Positions 4 through 14,669 of a DNA stretch of 20,000 nt are shown in pieces. The DNA is from an uncultured virus (IMG/VR IMGVR_UViG_3300037843_000618) (lineage: Duplodnaviria > Heunggongvirae > Uroviricota > Caudoviricetes): IMG/VR virus record IMGVR_UViG_3300037843_000618. One strand, 5' to 3'. The translations under genes and the position numbers were made by a program. The notes beneath the pieces are model-generated. The model made no database searches and was not told where the DNA came from. It worked only from the letters and a program-made list of their open reading frames with translations. The first letter of the stretch is position 1. The number at the start of each line of letters is the position of its first letter.

Positions 4-1584
4 TCATTCTGTAATACCCGATTTCCTATAGGCCTTCCACAACGTGAGCTTGGCTTTCAGGTAGCTCACGTGTGGCGGCATGGGTGGCTGATTTGGGAGC
101 TTATGCGGGTGTTTGGCGTCGTCCAAGGCGTGTTTACCGAGATACGCCTGAAGCTCTGGTAGGGTATTACCACTCCCCTTGATCTTGTCCCAAGCATGAT
201 GCAACCAGCCGTCGTGTAATACTTGGATTTGTTCCTGCGGTTTGACTGGGTCAGACCAGTTGTCATGCTCTGCGTAATTCCACCCAAGGTCTTTCATGTA
301 TTGATTTAATCCTGCTTGGATGTCCCCCGCCGCCTGTTTGGCGACAGCCTTTACGTCGCTGGCGGTTATACGGCGAGTGGCAAGTCCATTAGACTGGAGA
401 CCCAGCCGCTTCGCCAGTTTCGTCAAGGCGGCGGCAAGTTCAAAGCGCAGGTCTTCATGGCGACGGTTTTCAACTGACTGTTGAAGCTTTTCTAAAATCG
501 CCTCGCCTTCTTGCACAACCCGGTTCAGGTCGTTGGTCATCACTATTTCTTCGGGGGTGAGGGGTCCTTTTTCCGGTTTGTAGGTGAGATCGTGGCAGAT
601 TTCGGACCACGCGTGCATGAGCACGGACGCGACCTGAATCTCGACGTTTGTGTCCGCATACTGGTATTCGTCCTTGTGAAGAGATTGGGGTTTCAGTCTG
701 ACAAGGTAGTGCGTGGCGACGTAGCCGATGCCGTCCCTCGGCCCCCTGTCCTCGGGAAAGTTCTTGGGCTTCCGCATCAAGGTGAACCGCTGTTCGATAA
801 GCTGACCCACGGCGGTGCGGTCGTTGGGCAGGTACAGCGCCACGCGGACCCCGGCAAGGTCCACGATGTCGTCGTAGATGTCCTGGAAGGACTGGTAATT
901 CTTTGTTTTGTTGCGCTCAAGGAGCTTTCCCTTGAGCTTGCGGGGCTTCTTGGCACGGTAGGTCACGATGGCGCGGATTCCGGCTTCTTGGAGGGCGTCC
1001 GCAAGGTGCTCGTGGACTTTCTCGGCGACCTTATCGAAGTACTCGAACTCGTGCTTGTACAGCTTGACGAAGGCGTCGATCAGGGAGAGCTTCTCCTCCT
1101 CGGCGACGTGGCGCTTGTCTTCGTGCTTCTCGGCACGCTCCTCGTGTATCTCCCCCTCGTGCTCCTCGGCTTCTGGCAGTTCCCTCATGGCAGCGTCGAG
1201 GAACTCGTCGAATGGGACTTCCGTGATCTCGCCCAGCGCCTCCTCCGGCATGTGCTCCAGGTACAGCTTTTCGGCCTCTTCGAGGGAGTCGAACCCGAGC
1301 ATGACCTTGTACTCGTCGAATTTTCCGTCCTTCATCTGCTCCAGCACGTAGACGTACTCGGAATCCTCGTTGGGGCCGATGTACACGTCCACGTGGTCGT
1401 CGTCGTCTGCGTCCACCGTGCTCGGGATGTAGCCGTAGTCGCACTTCATGTCCATCTTCCAGCTTTCCCCGTTGTCATGCTTGCCAACGCGGACGCTTCC
1501 CTTAGGCCACTCGATGATGATGGGGATACCGTGGAACTCGGTGCTGTGCATGTTCGGCAACTTGTCTGCGGTCACGGATTTCAT
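4..1584 (-). CDS. Fusion of phage-type inorganic pyrophosphatase-like (InPase) domain and RelA/SpoT small-alarmone-synthetase-like domain, 526 aa
   Basis: N-terminal IEWPKGSVR...DYGYI...DADDDDHVDVYIGP...FDEYKVMLGF resembles PPase-like InPase domains. The central part carries RelA/SpoT synthetase motifs RAKxxxxLxxKL, DIVDLAGVRV, GYVATHY and EIQVASVLMHAWSEICHDLTYK. Confidence 0.85.
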   Translation of the reverse strand: MKSVTADKLPNMHSTEFHGIPIIIEWPKGSVRVGKHDNGESWKMDMKCDYGYIPSTVDADDDDHVDVYIGPNEDSEYVYVLEQMKDGKFDEYKVMLGFDSLEEAEKLYLEHMPEEALGEITEVPFDEFLDAAMRELPEAEEHEGEIHEERAEKHEDKRHVAEEEKLSLIDAFVKLYKHEFEYFDKVAEKVHEHLADALQEAGIRAIVTYRAKKPRKLKGKLLERNKTKNYQSFQDIYDDIVDLAGVRVALYLPNDRTAVGQLIEQRFTLMRKPKNFPEDRGPRDGIGYVATHYLVRLKPQSLHKDEYQYADTNVEIQVASVLMHAWSEICHDLTYKPEKGPLTPEEIVMTNDLNRVVQEGEAILEKLQQSVENRRHEDLRFELAAALTKLAKRLGLQSNGLATRRITASDVKAVAKQAAGDIQAGLNQYMKDLGWNYAEHDNWSDPVKPQEQIQVLHDGWLHHAWDKIKGSGNTLPELQAYLGKHALDDAKHPHKLPNQPPMPPHVSYLKAKLTLWKAYRKSGITE

Positions 1585-1620
1585 AGGTTTGTTGGAAAAT
1601 CGGGCATGCGCCCAGACAGC

Positions 1621-1642
1621 CCCCTATATTGGAACGGGTAGT
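1621..1642 (-). promoter_or_regulatory. Recurrent upstream motif copy (ACTACCCGTTCCAATATAGGGG), putative phage promoter
   Basis: Matches the fixed-spacing motif found before six genes; lies ~36 nt upstream of the ATG at 1584. Confidence 0.5.
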
Positions 1643-1689
1643 TCCGTCAAGGGCAAAGTACTGGCAATTCGCGGGTTGGAGAAATGCGC

Positions 1690-1738: not shown

Positions 1739-3037
1739 TTGACGAGCAAATCCAACAGGACAGAGCCGGGACAGAAGCCAACTCACGGCACACGCGAGCA
1801 ACTGGTCACAGACATCAAGAAAATCCGCAAGAACTTTACCAACGCCACGATCACGCGAGACTTCTACCGAAAGCACGGCAAATATGCGGACATCGCATGG
1901 GCGGAGTATTTCCCCACCTTCAAGGCTTTTGTCGAGGCCGGGGGCGGACAGCCCGAGGCCGCGGTGGCAACGCCGAAGATGCCCCCGGCCGAGCTTACCT
2001 CGGAAGACAGGCTCAAGGTAGACCTTGAAAAGGTCGCCGTCAAGAAAGAGGGCACGCAGAAGAAGTATACTGAGGCCCTCAACCGCATTAAGCAGCTTGA
2101 AACTGAAAAAGAAATCCTGATCGGTCTTGACGAGCACACCCCGCAAATAATCGACATCCTTCCAAGAAGTAGCAGTGGCAGCAGCTACTCCGTGGCCGTA
2201 ATCGTCTTCTCAGACTGGCACATTGAGGAGCCTGTCAGCCTCGATGACGTCAGTGGCGTGAATGAGTTCAACCTTCAGATCGCCGAAAAGCGCGTGGTCA
2301 AGGCTTGGCAAAGCGCTCTCCGCCTGTACCAGAAGGAGTCGAAGGAAACCGAGATCAAGGAAGTCATCATCGCCCTTCTTGGCGACTTCATTACCAATCG
2401 CATCCACGAGGACCTGGCTGAGTCGAACCTGCTCCAGCCTACCGATGCGATGTATAAGGCGCAGGGTCTTATTATCAGCGGACTACGGTTCCTGCTGGAA
2501 CATTTGCCGAATGATGTGAAGATCACCGTCGTGTGCCATAGCGGAAACCATGGAAGAATGACCCCGGAACAGCGTATAAAGACCGAGGCGGGCACCTCCA
2601 TCGAGCGCTTCATGTACTTCAACATCCGCGACCAATTCAAGGACGAGCCTCGCATGACGTGGCAAATCGCGTCAGGCTACCACACCATCATCCGCCTGTT
2701 CGACAAGGACAAGCCCTACGTGATCCGCTTCCACCACGGGCACGCCATCAGGAGCACTGGTGGCGTCGGTGGCATCTACCCCACGGTCAACAAGGCGATT
2801 GGCAACTGGAACAAATCGGTGCGCGACGTCAACCTTGACGTGTTTGGGCACCATCATCAATTCATAGACGGTCAGGATTTTATCTGCAACGGGTCGCTGA
2901 TTGGTTACAACTCCTTTGCGATAAACATCAAAGCTCCTTATGAGCCGCCCAAACAAGCGTTCTTCCTGATCAATAGGAAGCACCGCTGCAAGGCGATGGT
3001 GACCCCGATCTTCGTCGAGGGCGATGACGAGAAGTAA
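1739..3037 (+). CDS. Calcineurin-like metallophosphoesterase with N-terminal helical (HNH-associated-repeat-like) module and coiled coil, 432 aa
   Basis: Five metallophosphoesterase motifs in order: SDWH, GDFI, GNHG, HHGH, GHHH. TTG start 8 nt after GGAGG. N-terminus TREQLVTDIKKI...TRDFYRKHGKY...YFPTFKAFVEAGG. Confidence 0.85.
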   Translation: MTSKSNRTEPGQKPTHGTREQLVTDIKKIRKNFTNATITRDFYRKHGKYADIAWAEYFPTFKAFVEAGGGQPEAAVATPKMPPAELTSEDRLKVDLEKVAVKKEGTQKKYTEALNRIKQLETEKEILIGLDEHTPQIIDILPRSSSGSSYSVAVIVFSDWHIEEPVSLDDVSGVNEFNLQIAEKRVVKAWQSALRLYQKESKETEIKEVIIALLGDFITNRIHEDLAESNLLQPTDAMYKAQGLIISGLRFLLEHLPNDVKITVVCHSGNHGRMTPEQRIKTEAGTSIERFMYFNIRDQFKDEPRMTWQIASGYHTIIRLFDKDKPYVIRFHHGHAIRSTGGVGGIYPTVNKAIGNWNKSVRDVNLDVFGHHHQFIDGQDFICNGSLIGYNSFAINIKAPYEPPKQAFFLINRKHRCKAMVTPIFVEGDDEK

Positions 3038-4969: not shown

Positions 4970-5023
4970 CTTGTGGGCGGTAACGCCGCAGCGAAGCCAG
5001 CACCCACAAAGACAGGAGTCTCT

Positions 5024-6178
5024 GTGAAAAGTGCAGCAAAGACCGCCGCTTCCAACTTGCTCGACCCCCGCCGACGCAGCGCCCAGGCGAAGGAGTTCCA
5101 GGACGCCCTGCGCCAGCGCGTTGTGGGCCAAGACCCCGCGCTCGAAAAGGTCGCGGAAATCTACCAGATGTTCCTTGCCGGGCTGAATCCCCCCGGCCGC
5201 CCCGTAGGCAATCTCCTGTTTCTCGGTCCGACTGGATCGGGAAAGACCCGTGTGGTCGAGGCGACGGCGGAAGCGCTGTTCGGCGACTCACGTGCCTGCA
5301 TCAAAGTGGACTGCGCCGAGTTCCAGCACTCGCACGAAATCGCCAAGCTGATCGGCTCCCCTCCGGGCTACCTTGGCCATCGGGAGACGCACCCGCTGAT
5401 CACGCAGGAAGCGTTGGCGCAATACTACACCGAGAACCTCAAGCTGTCGATCCTTCTGTTCGACGAGATCGAGAAGGCGTCCGACTCGCTGTGGCAGCTT
5501 TTGCTAGGCATGCTCGACAAGGCGACGTTGACGCTGGGCGACAACCGCCGCGTGGACCTGTCGGCGACGATAATCTTCCTGACTTCCAACCTCGGGACCG
5601 GGGAGATGCGAAACCTCCAAGAGGGCGGGGGCATGGGCTTCGGCAGAGGCGACGTCGTGATGGACGAGGGATTTGACCAGAAAATCCAGCGTACAGCCAC
5701 GGAGGCGGCGCGGCGCAAGTTCACGCCTGAGTTCATGAACCGCATCGACAAGACCGTGGTCTTCGGCATGCTTCGAGATGAGCACCTTCGCGAGATACTC
5801 GACATCGAACTGGGCCTCGTGCAGGGGCGCATCCTGTGCGCCACCAAGGGATTTGTGATCTATGCCGACCAGCAGGCCAAGGAAGCCCTGCTGCTGGAGG
5901 GCACCGACTTAAAGTACGGCGCTCGCCACCTCAAGCGTGCGATAGAGCGCAACGTCGTCCACCCGCTGGCCAACCTGGTCGCGACGGACCAGGTGGCGCT
6001 CGGCGACGTCATCCAGATCGGGTACGATGGCGACCTCCCGGTTCGCGGCGAGACCCCGGTGACTGGGGAGTACACATTCACGAGACGCCAAGAGGGCGTC
6101 ATAATCCCCAGGGAAGCCGGGGCAATCGGGTCGGCCGCGCCCTCGGGCGTGAGGATCACAATCCCGAAGAAAGACTAA
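5024..6178 (+). CDS. Stand-alone ClpA/B/C D2-type AAA+ ATPase, ~384 aa
   Basis: Walker A GPTGSGKT, pore loop GSPPGYLG, Walker B LLFDEIEK, sensor-1 TSN, PEFMNRID, sensor-2 YGARHLKR. GTG 5024 follows AGGAG; alternative start at 4973. Confidence 0.9.
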   Translation: MKSAAKTAASNLLDPRRRSAQAKEFQDALRQRVVGQDPALEKVAEIYQMFLAGLNPPGRPVGNLLFLGPTGSGKTRVVEATAEALFGDSRACIKVDCAEFQHSHEIAKLIGSPPGYLGHRETHPLITQEALAQYYTENLKLSILLFDEIEKASDSLWQLLLGMLDKATLTLGDNRRVDLSATIIFLTSNLGTGEMRNLQEGGGMGFGRGDVVMDEGFDQKIQRTATEAARRKFTPEFMNRIDKTVVFGMLRDEHLREILDIELGLVQGRILCATKGFVIYADQQAKEALLLEGTDLKYGARHLKRAIERNVVHPLANLVATDQVALGDVIQIGYDGDLPVRGETPVTGEYTFTRRQEGVIIPREAGAIGSAAPSGVRITIPKKD

Positions 6179-6403: not shown

Positions 6404-6769
6404 CTATATGTTTATCTGCTGCGTCGTTCCCGGCAGGGTTCCGGGGACGACGATGATCATGTTAAACGGAAGCGCGATCACGAAGATGTCGGACGTCCAC
6501 AGGTAGCCAAACAAACCGCTGTTCGGTTCGAGTGGGATGTACGTCGGCGTGCTGTTGGCGCTCCCGCCGTCCTTCATGTAGACGAGCGAGGAAGGTATCC
6601 AGGCGAGGAAAGGGTCCCCCTGCCCGAGCCAAGAGATAGACTTCTGGGTTCCCGCGTACAGCAGGGGCCATTTTGTGACGGTGGGAAACCAGGTCGCCGC
6701 CGATGGCGGGGACCCCGGAGTCTCGTCCCTCTGTCCGAGCCATGCTGCGACTGGGTTGTTGGCCGGCAT
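6404..6769 (-). CDS. Putative virion-associated protein, 121 aa
   Basis: Last gene of a tightly packed operon (3-nt gap, GAGG RBS); Pro/Trp/Gly-rich. Confidence 0.7.
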   Translation of the reverse strand: MPANNPVAAWLGQRDETPGSPPSAATWFPTVTKWPLLYAGTQKSISWLGQGDPFLAWIPSSLVYMKDGGSANSTPTYIPLEPNSGLFGYLWTSDIFVIALPFNMIIVVPGTLPGTTQQINI

Positions 6770-6772
6770 TCC

Positions 6773-8431
6773 TCACTCCCACCTGATCCCGATGGCGCAG
6801 TTCGGGACGGGAGTATAGTCGAAAATCTTCGTCATAAGGAACGTGTGCAGCGAGCCGTACATGTAGACGGAAATTAAGCCACCTTCGACGCAGTCCCCGG
6901 TCTTCATGCATATTGCACCAAGCAGCGGATTCCCCATGTAACCTACCGAAGGAAAGACGGGCAGAGGCGTTTGCAGTCCGGCGTCGGAAAGGGTCGTCAG
7001 CGAGGGGTATGGGGCCCACACGGGCCAGGTGTTGATGTTGGTTCCGATTGTCGCGTAGAATGTGGCGGGCATTGTGGGCTGAGCGCTGCCCGGCTTGAAG
7101 AGGGTGATGGCCCCCACCATGTTTCCCGGATTGCTGTTGCCGCAGCCTGTGCCGACGTATGTCGCATAGCTGTCAAGGTCGGTCCCGCTGCTGCTCTTCG
7201 CCCTGTCTATGGTTATTATAAACGGCGGAAAAACGCCGAACGAAGACGCGGTGCGCCACAGCATCATCGACAAGCTCCCCCCGGAATCGCTGGCGCAGAA
7301 GTCGCACTCCCACAGGGTGGCACCCGTCCCCGAGAGCGATGCGGCTGCCGACATCCCTATCTCGCTCGCGCCCAGCTTGTTCCCGGTGATCCAGCCGCCG
7401 CCCGTGGTTCCTGTCCCTATCATAAACAATATGGCCGGAGCGTTGGGGCTGCTCACACACCTGCCGTAGACCAAGCGCATGTAGAGGGGCGACAGACCAT
7501 CGTTGGTCTGCCAGACCTCGTAGGGATAAGGCGACCAGTGCGTCGTGTCCGTCGCCGGGTTTGTGTTTTCCGTGAAGGTGCCGTTTACGCCAGTCTCCGA
7601 CGTCCCTGTCGCCGTGACAGCGATAAGCCCTGCTCCACTGCTTATCTGGCCAGCGGAGGTGACCGTGAACGTCCCGCTGTTCCCCGCTCCGGTGACGGCG
7701 ACTACTATCGAGTGCCCCGCCATCGCGTAGGCGACCGAGTTGAGGCCCCCAGCCCCGGAAACCCAGGTGCCGAAAGCGGTGTTCGTCGAGCTAAAAGTCA
7801 GGACGGAGGGGGAAGAGACGGCGGTCCCGGACTGCAAGGTCGAGGCGGTCGCGTTGGGGTTGTTGAGCGTGATGCTCGTACCGGCGGATGCGGCGACGCA
7901 CATGAACGTCCCGTTGTTGTTCGACGCCGTCATCCCGGTGACGACGAATTGCACCCCGACCATGGCGGCGGTCGCGCCCGTGGTGGAGTACACGCTGCCC
8001 CCAACCCCCGCCGTCGTGCAGGCGGTGATGGGGTCGTTGATGGGAGGGCTGCCGGGCGAACCGAGGGTGATGTTCGGGTTTTGGGCAACCGTCACGCCAG
8101 CGGATACGGAGACTTGGGTGGCGTTGTAGCACCAGTACGTCAGGCCCGAGGGCGCATACGTGACGACGCTGAACGCCGCCTCCGTGGCCGGGATTGCCGT
8201 GGTGTAGGCGGTGCCTCCCACCCAAGCCGCTGGTGTCACCCAAAAGCCGTCCCCCGTGAACGGATAGGCGCTGGCGGTGGGAGTCGTGGTCAAGTTGCCC
8301 CAGACGATCTGCCCCGTGTCTGCGGTCTTTATCCATCCGAGCGTGGACATGGCCGTGCTTATGCCCTGCGCCCAAGCGAGGAAGTTGGCGAGGGTCGAGT
8401 TGTCATACGGCAAAGAGACTTGGTACTTCAT
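6773..8431 (-). CDS. Putative virion structural / fibre-like protein, 552 aa (paralogue of 8432-9625)
   Basis: Thr/Gly/Ala/Ser-rich, beta-type composition with few charged residues; shares several blocks with the upstream ORF. Confidence 0.75.
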   Translation of the reverse strand: MKYQVSLPYDNSTLANFLAWAQGISTAMSTLGWIKTADTGQIVWGNLTTTPTASAYPFTGDGFWVTPAAWVGGTAYTTAIPATEAAFSVVTYAPSGLTYWCYNATQVSVSAGVTVAQNPNITLGSPGSPPINDPITACTTAGVGGSVYSTTGATAAMVGVQFVVTGMTASNNNGTFMCVAASAGTSITLNNPNATASTLQSGTAVSSPSVLTFSSTNTAFGTWVSGAGGLNSVAYAMAGHSIVVAVTGAGNSGTFTVTSAGQISSGAGLIAVTATGTSETGVNGTFTENTNPATDTTHWSPYPYEVWQTNDGLSPLYMRLVYGRCVSSPNAPAILFMIGTGTTGGGWITGNKLGASEIGMSAAASLSGTGATLWECDFCASDSGGSLSMMLWRTASSFGVFPPFIITIDRAKSSSGTDLDSYATYVGTGCGNSNPGNMVGAITLFKPGSAQPTMPATFYATIGTNINTWPVWAPYPSLTTLSDAGLQTPLPVFPSVGYMGNPLLGAICMKTGDCVEGGLISVYMYGSLHTFLMTKIFDYTPVPNCAIGIRWE

Positions 8432-9625
8432 TTAGTCGAACCTCACCCCGACCCCCGCCATCGTCGCCTGTCCCAGCCCGAGGATTCCATTGGCGAAAGC
8501 CGTGACTGTCATGATGTAGCTGTGCGTCGCCCCGTAAACCGTGCAGGACTGCGTCGCTCCCTCCGTCGTGTCGGCCTCCTGCTGGACGATCAGCGCGGTC
8601 ATCGGGTTGCCGCAATACCCCACCAGCGGAAAAACGGGAAGAGCCGGGGTCGTGTTGTTCACGATGAGCGATGCCGTCGCTCCACCCAGCGTGGGGGCGT
8701 TGCCATAGAGGACGCGGACGGCGACGGCGGGGGTGCCGCTCAGGAACAAGCTCTGCTGCGCCCAGTTGGTGACTGCGGCGTAGCCCCTTACGTAGGTGAT
8801 GTAGTTCGAGTTGTAGACCGGGGCCGACGCGGTCGTGCCGGAGATGCTGCGTTCCACGCAGAGGATCGCGGGGCCGCTGGTGACCGAAGCGATGCCGCGA
8901 GACAGGTTCATGGCGAGATAGTTGGAGCCGTCAGAGGCGAAGTCGCATTCCCCCACGGTGGCCCCCACTCCTGTGCCGAAGAGGTATTCTGTCGATGTCA
9001 CGTTTCCGGTCAGGTAGCCGCTCGCCCCTACGCTGTAGCCCGTGCCGAACTGCACCGTCGCCATCGGGTCGGCGACGGCGGTGGCGCTGCACCCGTACTC
9101 GATCTTCATGTAGAACGGGGTTAGGCTTCCCGCGCCGGGCGTGAACTCCCAGATTTCCATGTAGTAGGGAGACCAGTAGGTCGTGTTGGACGGGATTTCC
9201 CCCACGGTGTTCGTCGTCGGGGAAATACAGATGTAGGTCAGCCCCGTCTCGCCGATGGACGGGGAAGACGCCGGAGTCCATATCACGACATTGCCCACCG
9301 CGTAGATGCCCTGCTGCCAGACCCCCATGAAGTTGGTCGAAGCCAATGCGGCGCGGGGCAGCGGGGCGACCCCAGCGGGAAACGCCGTGCCGTTCAAGCC
9401 GGAGACAGTTTGCCCGTTCGGCAGCGCGGCTGCGCCCACGGAAAGGGCGGTCGCCCACTGCGCCGTGTAGGTGTCCGCCATCTTGGTGAGCACACCGGCT
9501 CCCAAGGCTGTGCCGAGAACATAGGAGATGCCGCTGGTGGCGGGAGTGCCGGAGTTCCCCGCCCACGCGACCATGTGGGCTATGGTGTCGTTGATGAATG
9601 CGATTTGTGACTGAAAGGATGCCAT
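8432..9625 (-). CDS. Putative virion structural / fibre-like protein, 397 aa, with CBM5/12-like segment
   Basis: AGGAG RBS. WQQGIYAVGNVV...GLTYICI...PSNTTYW resembles the W-x-x-x-x-Y-x-x-G-x-x-V carbohydrate-binding module pattern. Confidence 0.75.
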   Translation of the reverse strand: MASFQSQIAFINDTIAHMVAWAGNSGTPATSGISYVLGTALGAGVLTKMADTYTAQWATALSVGAAALPNGQTVSGLNGTAFPAGVAPLPRAALASTNFMGVWQQGIYAVGNVVIWTPASSPSIGETGLTYICISPTTNTVGEIPSNTTYWSPYYMEIWEFTPGAGSLTPFYMKIEYGCSATAVADPMATVQFGTGYSVGASGYLTGNVTSTEYLFGTGVGATVGECDFASDGSNYLAMNLSRGIASVTSGPAILCVERSISGTTASAPVYNSNYITYVRGYAAVTNWAQQSLFLSGTPAVAVRVLYGNAPTLGGATASLIVNNTTPALPVFPLVGYCGNPMTALIVQQEADTTEGATQSCTVYGATHSYIMTVTAFANGILGLGQATMAGVGVRFD

Positions 9626-9664
9626 GATTGCTCCTAAATTAGGGTCGTGTATGCCCTTCCTTTG

Positions 9665-12352
9665 CTACGACTGGGTTGTCCAGACCGCTCCCGATATTTG
9701 CACCGCCGCAGACGAGTTGACCGAAATCTGCTTCCCCGATGTGCTCACGTAGTAAGGCTCCCCGTCCCCAGCGTGGTTGAGGACTCCGCTGCTGATGAGC
9801 AGAACGGGGCCGGTGAATGTGACGGGGATGCTGTTTGTGTCTTGAATAGTTATATTCGTCGTCGTCGTCGTGTTGCAGTTGACCAGGAACAGGCGCATTA
9901 CCCTGACGGTCTTTCCGGCCACCGCTGCGGGACCGATGTTGTTCACCCCCAAGGTGTTGAAGTTGACAGGCGTGCAGGTCCAGTTCGCGGTCGCCGGGGA
10001 GCCGGGGCGGATGCGATGGCTGCCCTGCAAATCGACAGATTGGAGAACTTGGTCGCCTTCCGTCCAAGGTCCCGGAGGCGCGGCGTTTGCGACGGCGGGC
10101 AGAACGCCGACGTTCGTCGCGGTGGGCGCGGCGTTGTTGTTGCTCAGGGTTCCCACGACCGTGGCATTCAGAAGGGAAGCGGTGCCTTGGCTGACTACCC
10201 ACGGCGATGTTGACTGTGTGACGCCGACAGACCCAGTGATCCCGACAGTTCCGCTCACCGTGACAGCCGGGGTGTTATTGGGGGAGATGGCAACGACCAG
10301 AGCCGGGTCGGTCGCAATTGCGGCGGTGGAAGCCGCCTTGACCGCAGCGATGTTCGTCCCGTCCGTGACCTTGATCGGCCAAGCGTTTCCCGTCGAGTTC
10401 GGGGTCCCCTGGCTGCTGTTCACGGTGATCGTACCCGTGTTGACCGTGCTGCTGACGTTCGGGGCGGCCAAGCCCTGCACGGTGTAGCTGACCACGGCCT
10501 CCGGCGCGGGGGGCGACCCAGTGCCCGAGATGGCGGTGTCATTGAAGATGCGGAAGTAGTTGAAGCCCGTGATGTTGAAGATAAACGCGGCAGCACCGGA
10601 CGTCCCGATGAGGGAGTACACGCCGTTGAACGTCATTTGCGTCCCAACGTTGACACCCGCCAATGCGATCCAATGGATGTTGTCGATGCTCACCTGGAAC
10701 GTGAGCGAGCCTGCGCTTATGGAACCGCTTGAGACGACCTCGACCGCCACGGAGTTGTAGTGGAGCGAGTTGCTCACCATGATCAGTGGGGCGGTGTGGG
10801 TCGGGTCGTATGTGTACGCCCCGACGCTGGCGGCCCCGGAGCCGCTCATGTTCAGGGCCGCCTCGGTCGAGATGTTCACGTTGGCGTAAGTCCCGGTGGG
10901 GGTCGTCCCGGCGAGCACGGAGCGGACAAGCTGCCCGTGCATGCCCGAGGTCAGGATGTCTGCGAGGTCGGTGATCACACCGTTGATCGGATTCGCCTTC
11001 AGGGTTGTTTGCAGCCTGAAGGTTGCCTGGGTCACCGACCCGTTCGTGTAAACAACTTGGTAGTATTGCCGCTTAACGGGGAAGATGAAGCTCTGCCCGG
11101 TCGGAAGCACGTCGGTGGCGGTAACGTAGGCTATGTCGAAGTCCCCCACATTCACGCCGTCTTCCGACCAATTGACAACCAGGCCAGCCGTGGAAGTCGC
11201 CGCCGAAATTTGGTCGGTGTCCACCGCGATCTGGAGCGCCGAGTAGCCCAGCGCGGAGTGCCACGCGCCCGTGAAGGCGAAGGTCGCCGACAGGGGGGTT
11301 GTCGAGGAGTTCCCCGCGTCAACGACGTCGTTCCCGGTTACCGTGCCCGAGACGCGGAGGGTTGGCTCCGCAGGTGATCCTGTGGTCTCCACCACGCTGG
11401 CAAGCGTCGTCAGGCTGGCTTCCGCCGCCAAATCTTGGACGACCCACGGGGAGGTCGATTGCGTTACGGCGACCGTGCCAGTGACCGTCGTCGATGCAAG
11501 GGAGACGACCCACGGGGAAGTTGATTGAGTTACGGCGACGGTGCCGGTCACGCTGACTGCTGATTGGTCGGAGGCTATGACTACCGGAACGGACGAGACC
11601 GAGACTTTTTGCCCGAGTGTCGTGGCTGTGCCGCCCCACTGGGAAACGTTCACGCTGGAGGAACTGCCGCCGACCTGCACGTTGACGTTCAGGTTGCCAC
11701 TGGCATCGACATGCAGGTTTTCAAGTAGACCGCTGGGGTTCTGCGCCCCCACAAGGATTGGGTTAAGGGGCGATGGCGGGCTTGCGCCGTTTGCCGTGGG
11801 CAGGTATGTGCCGGGAGGAAAGACGCCTTGCACCAGCGGGTCGGCCCATAGCGCGGTCGTGTTTCCGGGCTGAGAGATCAAAATCTCCCCAGCGTGCATC
11901 GGCAGGTTGCCGTCGATGTTTACCGTGCCGATCTCGTTCGCGTTGAGCACGCCCGAGCCTGCGTAGCCGAGGGACGCGCCGGTGCCGACGACCATGGCGG
12001 CGGTTGTGTTAGTGCCGGAGGTGATCACGCCAAAGCTGGGCGTTCCCCCTGCGGAGTACCATGCGCTGACATCCCCGCCAATGTCGGACGTCCAGACGAC
12101 GGCGGTGTAGCCGCCGCCGGGGCTTGGTGCGCTGCCGTTGAAGTCCGGGCTGGAGACCGGGGTGCCGTTTACGGAGACGGTCGATCCGCCCCCCGAGATC
12201 ATGGAGGAGTCTATCTTACCGGATGATGCGAGCAGGACGACCTTGCCCGCGTCCGCAGCGCCGCCAGAGGCCTGCACCGCGCCAACCAGAGACTCGTTGA
12301 GCGGTCCGCCAGGCTTCGTCTGCGTGACCTTGAACGTCTTGAATGTGTCCAT
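9665..12352 (-). CDS. Large putative virion structural / tail-fibre-like protein, 895 aa
   Basis: Very Thr/Ser/Val/Gly-rich with internal repeats; N-terminal SGGAADAGKVVLLASSGKIDSSMI segment of the kind seen in phage fibre proteins. Confidence 0.75.
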   Translation of the reverse strand: MDTFKTFKVTQTKPGGPLNESLVGAVQASGGAADAGKVVLLASSGKIDSSMISGGGSTVSVNGTPVSSPDFNGSAPSPGGGYTAVVWTSDIGGDVSAWYSAGGTPSFGVITSGTNTTAAMVVGTGASLGYAGSGVLNANEIGTVNIDGNLPMHAGEILISQPGNTTALWADPLVQGVFPPGTYLPTANGASPPSPLNPILVGAQNPSGLLENLHVDASGNLNVNVQVGGSSSSVNVSQWGGTATTLGQKVSVSSVPVVIASDQSAVSVTGTVAVTQSTSPWVVSLASTTVTGTVAVTQSTSPWVVQDLAAEASLTTLASVVETTGSPAEPTLRVSGTVTGNDVVDAGNSSTTPLSATFAFTGAWHSALGYSALQIAVDTDQISAATSTAGLVVNWSEDGVNVGDFDIAYVTATDVLPTGQSFIFPVKRQYYQVVYTNGSVTQATFRLQTTLKANPINGVITDLADILTSGMHGQLVRSVLAGTTPTGTYANVNISTEAALNMSGSGAASVGAYTYDPTHTAPLIMVSNSLHYNSVAVEVVSSGSISAGSLTFQVSIDNIHWIALAGVNVGTQMTFNGVYSLIGTSGAAAFIFNITGFNYFRIFNDTAISGTGSPPAPEAVVSYTVQGLAAPNVSSTVNTGTITVNSSQGTPNSTGNAWPIKVTDGTNIAAVKAASTAAIATDPALVVAISPNNTPAVTVSGTVGITGSVGVTQSTSPWVVSQGTASLLNATVVGTLSNNNAAPTATNVGVLPAVANAAPPGPWTEGDQVLQSVDLQGSHRIRPGSPATANWTCTPVNFNTLGVNNIGPAAVAGKTVRVMRLFLVNCNTTTTTNITIQDTNSIPVTFTGPVLLISSGVLNHAGDGEPYYVSTSGKQISVNSSAAVQISGAVWTTQS
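10193..11551 (-). repeat. Three copies of a 48-nt / 16-aa repeat VTGTVAVTQSTSPWVV (11504-11551, 11438-11485, variant 10193-10240)
   Basis: Read directly from protein and DNA; synonymous positions differ between copies. Confidence 0.9.
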
Positions 12353-12653: not shown

Positions 12654-13115
12654 TCAAATTTCCTCGCCGAAAGAATTCGCTATAGATTTTGCGCGGCCCA
12701 GCGTAACGCTGTCAACCCTCGGCTCCCTCAGGTTCGGGTTCGCCGCGAAGTGCCTCCGCACCTTTTCCGCTTCCTCGGCTTCGATGCGTGTGTTGTGCGT
12801 GATAATATTCGGGCGGCTGATGCTGAGTCCCGGCAACACAGCTAAGATTTCCCTCGCCTTGCAGCGCAGTTCTCCCGCAAGCTCGCTCACCCGTGTCCTC
12901 GCGGTCTTCATGGCGATCTTCGGTTCCACTGTTGCACCCGCAAGTTCCCTGAAATGCTTGCGTACTTCTTCCGCAGTGACGAGGCTTATCCGGCTCGAAT
13001 GAGTCTTCTTTTCGATGACGCCGATTTCCGGCAAATAGTCAATGACGGTTTTAGCTTTCACTTTAAGCTCGCGAGATAGCTCATTGATCCAAATCTCCTT
13101 CGGTTCCAGGTTCAT
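12654..13115 (-). CDS. Protein of two tandem translation initiation factor IF-2 N-terminal-like domains, 153 aa
   Basis: Repeats IWINELSRELKVKAKTVIDYLPEIGV..KKTHSSRI....AEEVRKHF and TRVSELAGELRCKAREILAVLPGL...THNTRIEAEEAEKVRRHF. ATGA overlap with the ligase stop; no GTPase domain. Confidence 0.8.
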   Translation of the reverse strand: MNLEPKEIWINELSRELKVKAKTVIDYLPEIGVIEKKTHSSRISLVTAEEVRKHFRELAGATVEPKIAMKTARTRVSELAGELRCKAREILAVLPGLSISRPNIITHNTRIEAEEAEKVRRHFAANPNLREPRVDSVTLGRAKSIANSFGEEI

Positions 13116-14140
13116 CTGTGTTGTTGTTCCTTTCTCAGCCCGTTGAACTCCACTGGCTTGCTCATCCAATGCTCGTCCGTCTGCACATGACCGCGCCGAA
13201 CATACTTGCCGACCACGAACGGGTATTCCCGCATGTGGAAGGAGCGAGCAGGGCGGGCGACAATGCCTTCCTGCTTGTCCGGGTGGATCGTCGCGCACAA
13301 TTCTTTGCACAGCGCGTCGCTGTACGGGCCGCGATGGATGACCGGGACGTGCTCAAGCCCAAGAAGCTGCGTCCATTCGACCGTCTCGTCCCATGCCAGG
13401 CACGTCAGTCCGTGCCACACGCCGAAGACCATAAAGTATGACGGCAGCCCACTGTATTTGATGCTGTGTTTCGCCGTTAGGTTCTCGCCGCACACGCGGT
13501 AATTTTTCGGTATGTCGTAGCTGCATGCCGCGTGGATCACCTTGATGAACGTTCGGCTGGGGTGCGCCTCGAACTCCAGCGACCGGGCGTGCAGGTCTCC
13601 GTTGTAAAATGTCGTGCCCTCGCCGTCCATCTTTTCGGTGAACACGTACTCGACGCCCTCCCACTCCTCGGTGCTCTTGAGCATCCGGTCGTCGTTCTGT
13701 AGGTTCGGACTCCATTTGAAATGAAAAGTTCTGGGGTACTTAATCCGATCAGTAAAGAAGTCTAGGACAGGTCGCAGGATTTTTTGGACAGGCTCTTCGT
13801 AAAAAAGCTCCCCCATCATCCTAGTCCCGTTTGAAAGGATCATGTTTCCCCACTTGTCGTACTCTTGATCCGAGAAAAAATGCGATGGCAGAACTATTTG
13901 CTCAATGTTTGCTTTAGCCCTGAGGGTTGTGCAGGAAATGAGCGTAGCTTCCGCAGCCAGATGGCACGTTTCACATAACATGACTCCGTTTTTGATGTAG
14001 TATCCTCCATCTGAAAATAATCTGCGCTCTACGATATGGTGGGCGTCTACACCTAGAAGACCGCAATTGACACAGCGATGCTTATCTCGCGTGAAAACTG
14101 CTTCACGGAACTGGTCGCGGGTTAGAAGTAGCCCTGACAT
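13112..14140 (-). CDS. RNA ligase (nucleotidyltransferase family) with N-terminal HNH domain, ~342 aa
   Basis: N-terminal RDKHRCVNCG...DAHHI...NGVMLCETCH; ligase motifs KYPRTFH, TEKMDGE (I), CGEN (III), FMVFGV (IIIa), EGIVAR (IV), KYVR (V). Start uncertain (14140 or 14164). Confidence 0.85.
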   Translation of the reverse strand: MSGLLLTRDQFREAVFTRDKHRCVNCGLLGVDAHHIVERRLFSDGGYYIKNGVMLCETCHLAAEATLISCTTLRAKANIEQIVLPSHFFSDQEYDKWGNMILSNGTRMMGELFYEEPVQKILRPVLDFFTDRIKYPRTFHFKWSPNLQNDDRMLKSTEEWEGVEYVFTEKMDGEGTTFYNGDLHARSLEFEAHPSRTFIKVIHAACSYDIPKNYRVCGENLTAKHSIKYSGLPSYFMVFGVWHGLTCLAWDETVEWTQLLGLEHVPVIHRGPYSDALCKELCATIHPDKQEGIVARPARSFHMREYPFVVGKYVRRGHVQTDEHWMSKPVEFNGLRKEQQHR

Positions 14141-14669
14141 GGTCTTCTGCGGTGCAGCCTCCATATTTCTTAGCGTTGTGGCAGTTCGCACAAAGCAGTT
14201 GTAGATCGTCGCGTTTCCCTTGCTTGAGGACAAGCTGATAGAACCTGCCGCCTCTAACTGATGCTGGAATTGATCGTCGTTCCTTTGCTCCATCATTGTT
14301 TTTGTGGTCTAGTTGCAAATGCTTTTGGTTGTCATCGCCGCAGGCTATTCCACTCGCGATGCAGGCACACTTCCCGCCGTACAATTCCAATACGTCAAGT
14401 CTGATCTGCCGATACTGCTTTTTGCCTTTCTCCCTCTCGCGTTCACGGCAGACCTTGCAAGTACTACGTCCTGTTACAGCCTTTCGCACTAAACATGACC
14501 TGCAAGTTCCTTTTGGTCGTCTAGCTTTTTGCCGTGCCGATATATCGCATCGGTCAGCCGCACACTCGTCGCACCGGACAATCCCCGCTCGCGGTGGTAA
14601 CTTACCGCAAGTGACACAAACGCCTTGTTCTTTCCGCCGATGGTAGAGTCGTAGTTGTGCTGATGCCAT
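14103..14669 (-). CDS. Free-standing HNH-type (probable homing) endonuclease with CxxC repeats, 188 aa
   Basis: Four N-terminal CxxC pairs, then YGGKCAC...LQLDHKNNDG...LQLLCANCHNAK; lower GC than the flanks. Confidence 0.8.
   Translation of the reverse strand: MASAQLRLYHRRKEQGVCVTCGKLPPRAGIVRCDECAADRCDISARQKARRPKGTCRSCLVRKAVTGRSTCKVCREREREKGKKQYRQIRLDVLELYGGKCACIASGIACGDDNQKHLQLDHKNNDGAKERRSIPASVRGGRFYQLVLKQGKRDDLQLLCANCHNAKKYGGCTAEDHVRATSNPRPVP

Follow-up and report, generated by a model that had tools for sequence, protein, structure and literature searches.

A phage protein that joins an InPase domain to a FunRel-type alarmone synthetase, a candidate head-packaged effector

Introduction

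Why a phage gene should join a pyrophosphatase-like domain to an alarmone synthetase is the question raised by a stretch of 20,000 nucleotides from an uncultured virus of the Caudoviricetes (IMG/VR record IMGVR_UViG_3300037843_000618), hereafter called the window. The minus-strand open reading frame (ORF) at positions 4..1584 of the window starts with ATG and corresponds to 526 predicted amino acids, with a codon-position GC of 0.62/0.32/0.75. A first-pass annotation recognised in it an InPase-like N-terminal domain, an acidic/His linker, a RelA/SpoT synthetase-like domain and a C-terminal extension of unfamiliar type, and proposed an enzyme for host takeover or anti-defence, possibly delivered by the virion. 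The reading favoured here, with about an even chance that the whole chain of steps holds, is that the protein is packaged in the phage head, trimmed by the head protease and injected as a synthetase of guanosine tetra- or pentaphosphate ((p)ppGpp) for host takeover.

Several sources are cited from excerpts (PMC5512222, PMC7229694, PMC7824862, PMC10052503, PMC10083569, PMC11782079, PMC11924767 and PMC12226406), and statements about them apply to those excerpts. The survey of phage polyvalent proteins by Iyer et al. 2017 lists both InPase and RelA/SpoT domains, with the same functional guesses, reports RelA/SpoT from Spirochaete and epsilonproteobacterial (pro)phages and invokes an MPTase for processing, but its passages do not describe the two domains in one small protein (PMC5512222). 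The pairing of InPase with an alarmone synthetase, presented as unfamiliar in the first-pass annotation, was not found in the literature searched, which lacked most subscription papers.

Results and discussion

Domains and active sites

Both domains scored above their Pfam cut-offs. The InPase domain (PF18823) was matched at residues 13-129 with E 1.3e-35 (122.6 bits against a cut-off of 26.8) and the RelA_SpoT domain (PF04607) at residues 210-338 with E 1.2e-11 (45.4 bits against 27), and no HD, TGS or ACT domain was matched by Pfam in the 526-aa protein. The acidic/His linker was also present, at about residues 130-164, and the C-terminal extension proved to be as unfamiliar as first described, with no Pfam match and no usable Atlas match for residues 415-526 (Table 1). 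An AlphaFold2 model made from a 79-row alignment had a mean predicted local distance difference test score (pLDDT) of 84.7 and a predicted template modelling score (pTM) of 0.51, and no fixed packing between the InPase and synthetase domains was seen in it.

Residues of about 165-374 of the model matched RelQ (5dec) with a Z score of 18.5 and a root mean square deviation of 2.5 over 182 aligned residues, RelQ-like C-terminal helices included. RelP followed (Z 17.9 and 17.0), then CapRel (11.8), Tas1 (10.3) and FaRel2 (7.4), and the Foldseek matches listed were RelA/SpoT homologue (RSH) enzymes without exception. The donor and catalytic residues of FaRel2 are R64, K66, S70, K74, R77, D90, G93, R95, Y128, E145 and Q147 (PMC11782079). 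By motif alignment 10 of these 11 are identical here (R210, K212, K220, R224, D242, G245, R247, Y288, E315 and Q317), and the kept residues, G-loop neighbours excepted, are found in 110-111 of 111 phage rows. The remaining position, that of Ser70, is Lys216. The first-pass annotation had singled out this Lys in place of the usual Ser of RxKxxxS; the residue was confirmed, but it is not special, since the phage rows have Arg in 47, Lys in 45 and Ser in 18 (Lys or Arg in 92/111) and the bacterial rows Arg in 79/83. The alignments thus identify the change as a trait of the FunRel subfamily.

The synthetase is assigned to FunRel by its motifs, compared by eye with the funRel alignment rows at the 9 of 15 places shown there; the regions GIRAIV..RAK, DLAGVRVALY.P and EIQVASVLMHAW agree with those rows (PMC7229694). 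All four same-strain genomes with a bacterial relative of the synthetase have one FunRel each in Dataset S2 of that study; for a fifth species FunRel is listed for another strain, and a sixth name is absent from the dataset (PMC7229694). A PADLOC match to PDC-S33 covered the synthetase core only in part and was not taken as membership. No experimental work on FunRel was found in the literature searched.

In the InPase domain an acidic cluster is formed by D61/D63/D66 and D90-E91-x-K93, joined by E25, R32 and Y52, residues whose roles we take to be those of their counterparts in E. coli pyrophosphatase. Among the 150 representatives listed from the 11,484 found with an InPase profile, D66, D90 and E91 are kept in 150/150 and K93 in 148/150. 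In the whole-protein fold search residues of about 13-149 matched four family I pyrophosphatase entries with modest scores (Z 6.0-6.9). Both predicted active sites of the protein are thus essentially intact as judged from conserved residues, and the synthetase is very probably catalytically active.

The Syn4 motif is EIQVAS, with A319 and S320 invariant, compared with EIQIRT in RelQ-type chains. This difference is one ground for asking whether FunRel might be a nucleotidyltransferase that releases pyrophosphate (PPi), the fused InPase pulling the reaction forward. Such chemistry would account for the pairing directly, and bacterial FunRel is paired with a HEPN domain (see below), as minimal nucleotidyltransferases are (PMC3710099; the word "SpoT" is absent from the main text of that HEPN survey). 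However, the ATP-donor residues of a pyrophosphokinase are all present, nucleotidyltransferase structures score at most 7.5 against the synthetase model compared with 18.5 for RelQ, and the bacterial genes have no fused pyrophosphatase, so that nucleotidyl transfer is quite improbable.

Variation of the architecture in the family

A homologue search gave 1,155 matches among 8,000 scored candidates, of which the 120 best were listed. A survey of their domain architectures bore out the pairing, both Pfam domains being found in 104 of the 120 (105 with hidden Markov models built in the analysis), although this list favours fusions because it was ranked by whole-protein score. In 23 of 100 tandem homologues more than 100 residues are inserted between the domains, and the linker is the insertion point in relatives, where GNAT, PARP/ART-like and HAD domains were found in the examples. 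In P0091, P0092, P0093 and P0188 the synthetase is nested within the InPase domain, after the YGY strand and near the acidic cluster, and these four form a clade of their own (support 100/99). P0102 has the order synthetase, HAD, partial InPase. P0053 and P0104 had also been flagged by script as insertion forms, but read as tandem. With at least two conflict-related domains in variable arrangement in a phage, the architecture shows the traits of polyvalent proteins, and its variable inserts resemble the ART, GNAT and HAD inserts of the proteins surveyed earlier (PMC5512222).

No stand-alone phage-type synthetase was seen, every complete one being joined to an InPase domain; short matches of high identity begin within the domain on small contigs, and one longer match has the InPase. 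The full architecture was absent from INPHARED phages (0/456 records cover 80%, with eight weak synthetase matches). The InPase domain occurs more widely, a synthetase being present in only 18 of the nearest 76 representatives and in 20 of the 150 listed. The InPase therefore looks like the constant part of the locus, a carrier for which the synthetase is one frequent cargo among swappable ones. InPase was also found within the Pa193 portal sequence and in PHROG head families; the Pa193 portal was the sole match of the InPase profile among PDB sequences, and its residues 529-765 are unresolved in the structure (PMC11456595). The polyvalent-protein survey regards InPase as probably packaged (PMC5512222).

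Carrier phages and evidence for packaging in the head

The contigs carrying the gene reach 300-463 kb. All four near-complete carriers encode counterparts of two Tunturi_5 proteins, the major head protein (72-74%) and the head protease (61-64%), in line with the phage origin first assumed, and a fifth carrier genome, 78% complete, had no match to either protein. Tunturi_5, a myovirus with a genome of 309 kb, infects Tunturiibacter, a member of the Acidobacteriota (PMC11924767). Its gp272 (PP885688) has an N-terminal InPase domain 48.5% identical to that of the window, lies beside the giant polyvalent protein gp273 and has the same linker motif, but its cargo is GP88, and no RelA_SpoT match is present in the Tunturi_5 genome. 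A separate observation is that gp272 (L112:14926-16263, plus strand), an InPase-GP88 protein, is annotated as "minor head protein", and several Tunturi_5 genes annotated as NUDIX, portal or toxin look like polyvalent proteins.

An upstream motif of TAG and a purine run was found 42-74 nt 5' of the start codon in 22 of 26 family loci, and a matrix derived from 19 further loci of the family has its top site in the window upstream of the gene. In Tunturi_5 the matrix score exceeded 8 upstream of 11/36 virion or polyvalent genes, compared with 1/34 of the genes for non-virion proteins (p = 0.036 by the Mann-Whitney test). The earlier suggestion that the gene sits behind the same motif as the structural operon holds as regards the family loci and the bias towards virion genes, but not for the 895-aa tail-like gene of the window, before which no site above 9 was found. 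The motif gives modest backing to the protein being head cargo.

A giant polyvalent protein is encoded downstream of the gene in 20 of 22 loci, and the remaining two loci end early; the 22 loci include several near duplicates. In the overlapping contig L032 (99.965% identity over 11,586 nt), which supplies the downstream context of the window, the gene is followed by an ORF resembling NUMOD3 homing endonucleases, by a SprT-like gene and by the gene for a polyvalent protein of 2,944 amino acids (L032:12647-21481, plus strand) with 2H, ART-PolyVal, GNAT and SprT domains. The small gene downstream varies, two families accounting for 9 and 7 of the 22 loci, and some of these genes are SprT-like; others resemble Tunturi_5 gp271 when compared by eye. 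No known antitoxin gene was recognised next to the synthetase gene. An unlinked gene similar to HD_4 small alarmone hydrolases is present in four of five carrier genomes (L195-L198, G002-G005).

These neighbours bear on whether the protein might act outside the virion as a toxic small alarmone synthetase (toxSAS) for superinfection exclusion or lysis timing, as PhRel gp29 of phage Phrann does. A phage-encoded toxSAS with such a role is known (10.1101/575399), and small downstream genes in most loci and the unlinked HD_4 hydrolases would fit it. The downstream genes, however, are SprT-like or resemble gp271 of Tunturi_5, which has no synthetase; moreover, synteny and the candidate cleavage motif described below suggest head cargo, and FunRel is not a validated toxSAS group. 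We therefore consider such a role unlikely.

Herpesvirus-type assemblins cleave after Ala. The pattern [KR][TVSIF]A or [VIL]TA was scored as a candidate cleavage site in the 100 tandem homologues and in shuffled sequences. It was found before the InPase domain in 68 homologues (9.2 in shuffles), between the domains, before the synthetase, in 68 (11 in shuffles) and after the synthetase in 78 (29.0 in shuffles), and was nearly absent from the InPase windows (0-1) and most synthetase windows, the exceptions being the window with the RVA of a core strand, which is invariant (98), and two further windows (21 and 12). In 15 giant polyvalent proteins K[TVI]A[AGSD] occurred 49 times where 9.9 were expected, and in 21 neighbouring enzymes 3 times where 3.2 were expected. 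A similar motif was enriched in five head genes (13 against 2.1) and six polyvalent genes (12 against 3.9) of Tunturi_5, and was not enriched in its 18 tail and 28 non-virion genes. The head proteases carry such motifs near their own ends. Giant-phage prohead proteases cleave many head and ejection proteins (PMC10052503), and K/V/I-x-A is probably the head-protease cleavage rule in Tunturi_5-like phages. As an observation in its own right, these motifs separate the domains of giant polyvalent proteins (L032) and mark the Tunturi_5-like head proteins (L199: gp328, gp331, gp332 and gp334).

Synteny, upstream motif and linker motif agree in making the virion delivery suggested in the first-pass annotation probable; the protein is likely to be packaged in the head, and there is a somewhat better than even prospect that it is cut at the motif.

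The position of the motifs also allows the InPase to be read as an antidote or regulator acting in cis, which clears the 3'-pyrophosphate product or keeps the synthetase inactive until proteolysis in the head frees the active enzyme. The joining of every complete phage-type synthetase to an InPase, the cleavage pattern between the domains, the separate clade with the synthetase nested in an InPase loop by the acidic cluster and the absence of a recognised antitoxin gene next to the locus would all fit, and nucleotide-like InPase substrates have been proposed (PMC5512222). On the other side, InPase mostly occurs without a synthetase, the model has no fixed domain packing and a protein stored in the capsid may need no antidote. 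Family I pyrophosphatases also prefer free PPi, and an antidote role is unlikely on balance.

Bacterial relatives and origin of the synthetase

Of 219 genome loci, the best 80 are bacterial genes that match the synthetase alone, the top three being from Acidobacteriota (47-49% identity). A C-terminal RxxxxH was found in 66 of the 80, three of which were mis-parsed and several short, and a profile of the bacterial C-terminal domain matched the HEPN structures of ApeA and HepT (E 6e-4 and 4e-3) and, weakly, HEPN Pfam families. The bacterial FunRel proteins thus end in a HEPN domain and have no fused pyrophosphatase, whereas the phage form has no HEPN and gains the InPase. The phage and bacterial FunRel domains share 51% profile identity over 232 columns, the C-terminal helices included.

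A maximum-likelihood tree was made from 49 of 126 non-redundant rows, after five bacterial and two phage rows had been removed for domain length. One branch divides phage from bacterial synthetases with support of 100/99 (28 and 21 rows, unrooted), and an Acidobacteriaceae gene is among the nearest to the phage synthetases. Transfer from bacterium to phage is the likely direction.

Among the bacterial relatives, the gene at L113:5001-6257 (plus strand) and most of L113-L192 are single-gene FunRel-HEPN loci, patchily distributed over many phyla and often near defence genes. A neighbour matching PADLOC (E <= 1e-10) was present at 10 of 30 bacterial loci, a count made from 124 of 149 called ORFs with no background control. 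Bacterial FunRel-HEPN is a candidate for an undescribed anti-phage system.

If so, the phage protein could be an anti-defence decoy, a HEPN-less FunRel that silences an immune gene by entering the FunRel-HEPN oligomers of the host or by competing with them for substrate. The profile identity, extending through the C-terminal helices, the Acidobacteriota genes as nearest genome matches and the PADLOC-matching neighbours are compatible with this. However, one full match (the centre genome itself) and one partial match were found in 201 Acidobacteriaceae genomes, so that FunRel-HEPN appears too rare to sustain a counter-measure throughout the phage clade, and the catalytic site is conserved, unlike in many decoys. 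A decoy is very improbable, and of the two roles first proposed, takeover is favoured over anti-defence because of this rarity.

Favoured explanation and points against it

According to the favoured explanation, an infected Acidobacteriota cell would produce this small polyvalent protein at a late stage, and the protein would be packaged into the prohead. There the head maturation protease would trim it at K/V/I-x-A sites, a treatment that the neighbouring giant polyvalent protein probably also receives. The small protein would enter the next host together with the phage DNA, and its FunRel domain would transfer the pyrophosphate of ATP to the 3'-OH of an acceptor. GDP or GTP is the most likely acceptor, and the resulting (p)ppGpp would dampen transcription and translation in the host at an early stage of infection. 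With slightly less than an even chance, (p)ppGpp is the leading candidate for the product; (pp)pApp and pyrophosphorylated tRNA (tRNA-PP) are each much less likely, and some other product less likely still. The InPase would work in parallel, by clearing PPi or by carrying the cargo into the head, and not as a partner that removes the product of the synthetase. The synthetase would have been acquired once from a bacterial FunRel-HEPN gene, with loss of the HEPN RNase.

RSH synthetases release AMP, not PPi, so that a pyrophosphatase is not needed to pull their reaction. Given this chemistry and the swapping of cargoes, the fusion is most simply explained by co-packaging. The transfer of ATP-derived pyrophosphate by RSH enzymes is described in PMC11782079.

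Several observations weigh against this explanation. The cleavage motif was defined after inspection of the sequences and the homologues are not independent; the shorter K[TVI]A is also raised in the neighbouring enzymes (22 against 11.6), and a reversed-motif control is enriched in the Tunturi_5 head genes as well (12 against 4.1). The 526-aa protein itself has the pattern at residues 4-6 and 406-408 and none between its domains, and may therefore stay fused. The unlinked HD_4 hydrolase could oppose alarmone build-up, and similarity of fold, taken from a model, would not fix the acceptor. As to origin, the synthetase tree is unrooted, and in a FastTree analysis with four distant outgroups 15 divergent phage rows fell outside all the others, a placement with weak support. 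Finally, the four nested forms and the joining of every complete synthetase to an InPase hint at a tighter coupling of the two domains.

Such a coupling could mean that the captured synthetase half of FunRel-HEPN is a capsid-delivered effector activated by the protease, with the InPase functionally coupled to it as cis antidote or as a PPi sink for a non-canonical nucleotidyl transfer. This is possible but doubtful. If true, a jumbo phage of lytic type would inject an alarmone enzyme from its virion under a new control mechanism, and FunRel would gain its first function.

Relation to known systems

Apk2 is a conceptual precedent. In Apk2 an N-terminal carrier associated with the head is joined to a C-terminal RSH enzyme, as is probably the case here, and co-injection with DNA was proposed, but the Apk2 enzymes come from temperate phages, make (p)ppApp and are fused to MuF (PMC10083569, PMC12226406). 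The carrier here is an InPase, with no MuF Pfam match. The enzyme here is also a FunRel, more similar to RelQ than to Tas1 in fold score, the adjacent immunity genes IapK/Tis1 or Aph1 were not recognised, and the carriers, which are jumbo phages, have a cultured myovirus among their relatives. The toxSAS groups (FaRel, FaRel2, PhRel, PhRel2 and CapRel) have the same catalytic fold and donor site and some are phage-encoded, but they belong to another subfamily, no antitoxin was recognised here and their fold scores are below those of RelQ and RelP.

A survey of jumbo phages mentions alarmone hydrolases only, which undo the stringent response (PMC7824862), and a clade whose heads probably carry an alarmone synthetase suggests the opposite. 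With this protein FunRel, a subfamily of bacteria and fungi, has a compact member that lends itself to testing, and its comparison brought to light bacterial FunRel-HEPN, a candidate for a defence system. Head cargo and domain boundaries in the Tunturi_5-like phage clade could also be predicted from the K/V/I-x-A motif.

Other features of the locus and the window

The coordinates of the features are collected in Table 1. Among all proteins collected, the piece at residues 420-500 of the C-terminal extension had matches in one synthetase-less InPase protein and in 24 further proteins or fragments of the family. A SUD-C-like (coronavirus) fold for residues 418-486 was set aside, as its two weak rows (Z 6.0-6.2) were at background level, and so was an antisense ORF of 376 amino acids (511-1641, plus strand), the Pfam matches lying in the minus-strand gene.

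Table 1 Features of the InPase-FunRel locus in the window
Feature	Position	Strand	Basis
Gene for 526-aa InPase-FunRel polyvalent protein (P0001)	4..1584	-	ORF and Pfam; L032 holds an identical protein
InPase domain, residues 13-129	1198..1548	-	Pfam, conserved residues, family I pyrophosphatase fold matches
Acidic/His helical linker, residues 130-164	1093..1197	-	pLDDT low at 156-163
FunRel-type small alarmone synthetase domain, residues 165-380	445..1092	-	Pfam core 571-957
C-terminal extension, residues 381-526	7..444	-	Model: helices, small beta-rich accessory domain, terminal helix
Beta-rich accessory domain in C-terminal extension, residues about 420-500	85-327	-	AlphaFold2 model
V-T-A motif, residues 4-6, candidate head-protease site	1567..1575	-	Motif enrichment in homologues
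I-T-A motif, residues 406-408, candidate head-protease site after synthetase	361..369	-	Motif enrichment in homologues
Pyrimidine-rich, TAG and purine-run motif, candidate late promoter	1619..1646	-	Matrix score 17.8
Divergent calcineurin-like metallophosphoesterase, syntenic neighbour	1739..3037	+	phrog_284 E 1.7e-36; motifs judged by eye

The BLAST cluster of the divergent phosphoesterase of the window is present in 12 of the 22 loci, and in seven others the divergent gene falls into one of two further clusters. At the other end of the gene, the NUMOD3-like ORF of L032 (L032:11578-12210, plus strand) is richer in AT, overlaps the stop codon of the gene and is absent from the clusters of the other loci.

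Two genes of the window bear on the host. A small protein with two IF2_N repeats (12657-13118, minus strand), possibly a mimic in translation initiation, matched the IF2 N-terminus of two of two Acidobacteriaceae genomes (49-53%) and of none of three controls. A short AAA+ ATPase with only the ClpB D2 part (4973-6178, plus strand) is 69% identical to a 405-aa Acidobacteriaceae protein, and its cluster lies near the locus in 10 of the 22 loci. Both genes matched Acidobacteriaceae best among the five genomes tried, and from these matches and the kinship with Tunturi_5 the host of the carrier phages is probably a member of the Acidobacteriota.

Elsewhere in the window, Gly/Ser/Thr-rich genes of 121, 552, 397 and 895 amino acids (6404-12352, minus strand), with no Pfam or PHROG match, probably encode tail or fibre proteins, and HNH and RNA ligase domains occur in one frame at 13112-14296 (minus strand), which may be a fusion or two genes. 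In the 456-kb phage genome from which locus L007 comes, a second paralogue of the major head protein was found (G002:C1:273765-274649), with 46% identity to Tunturi_5 gp334.

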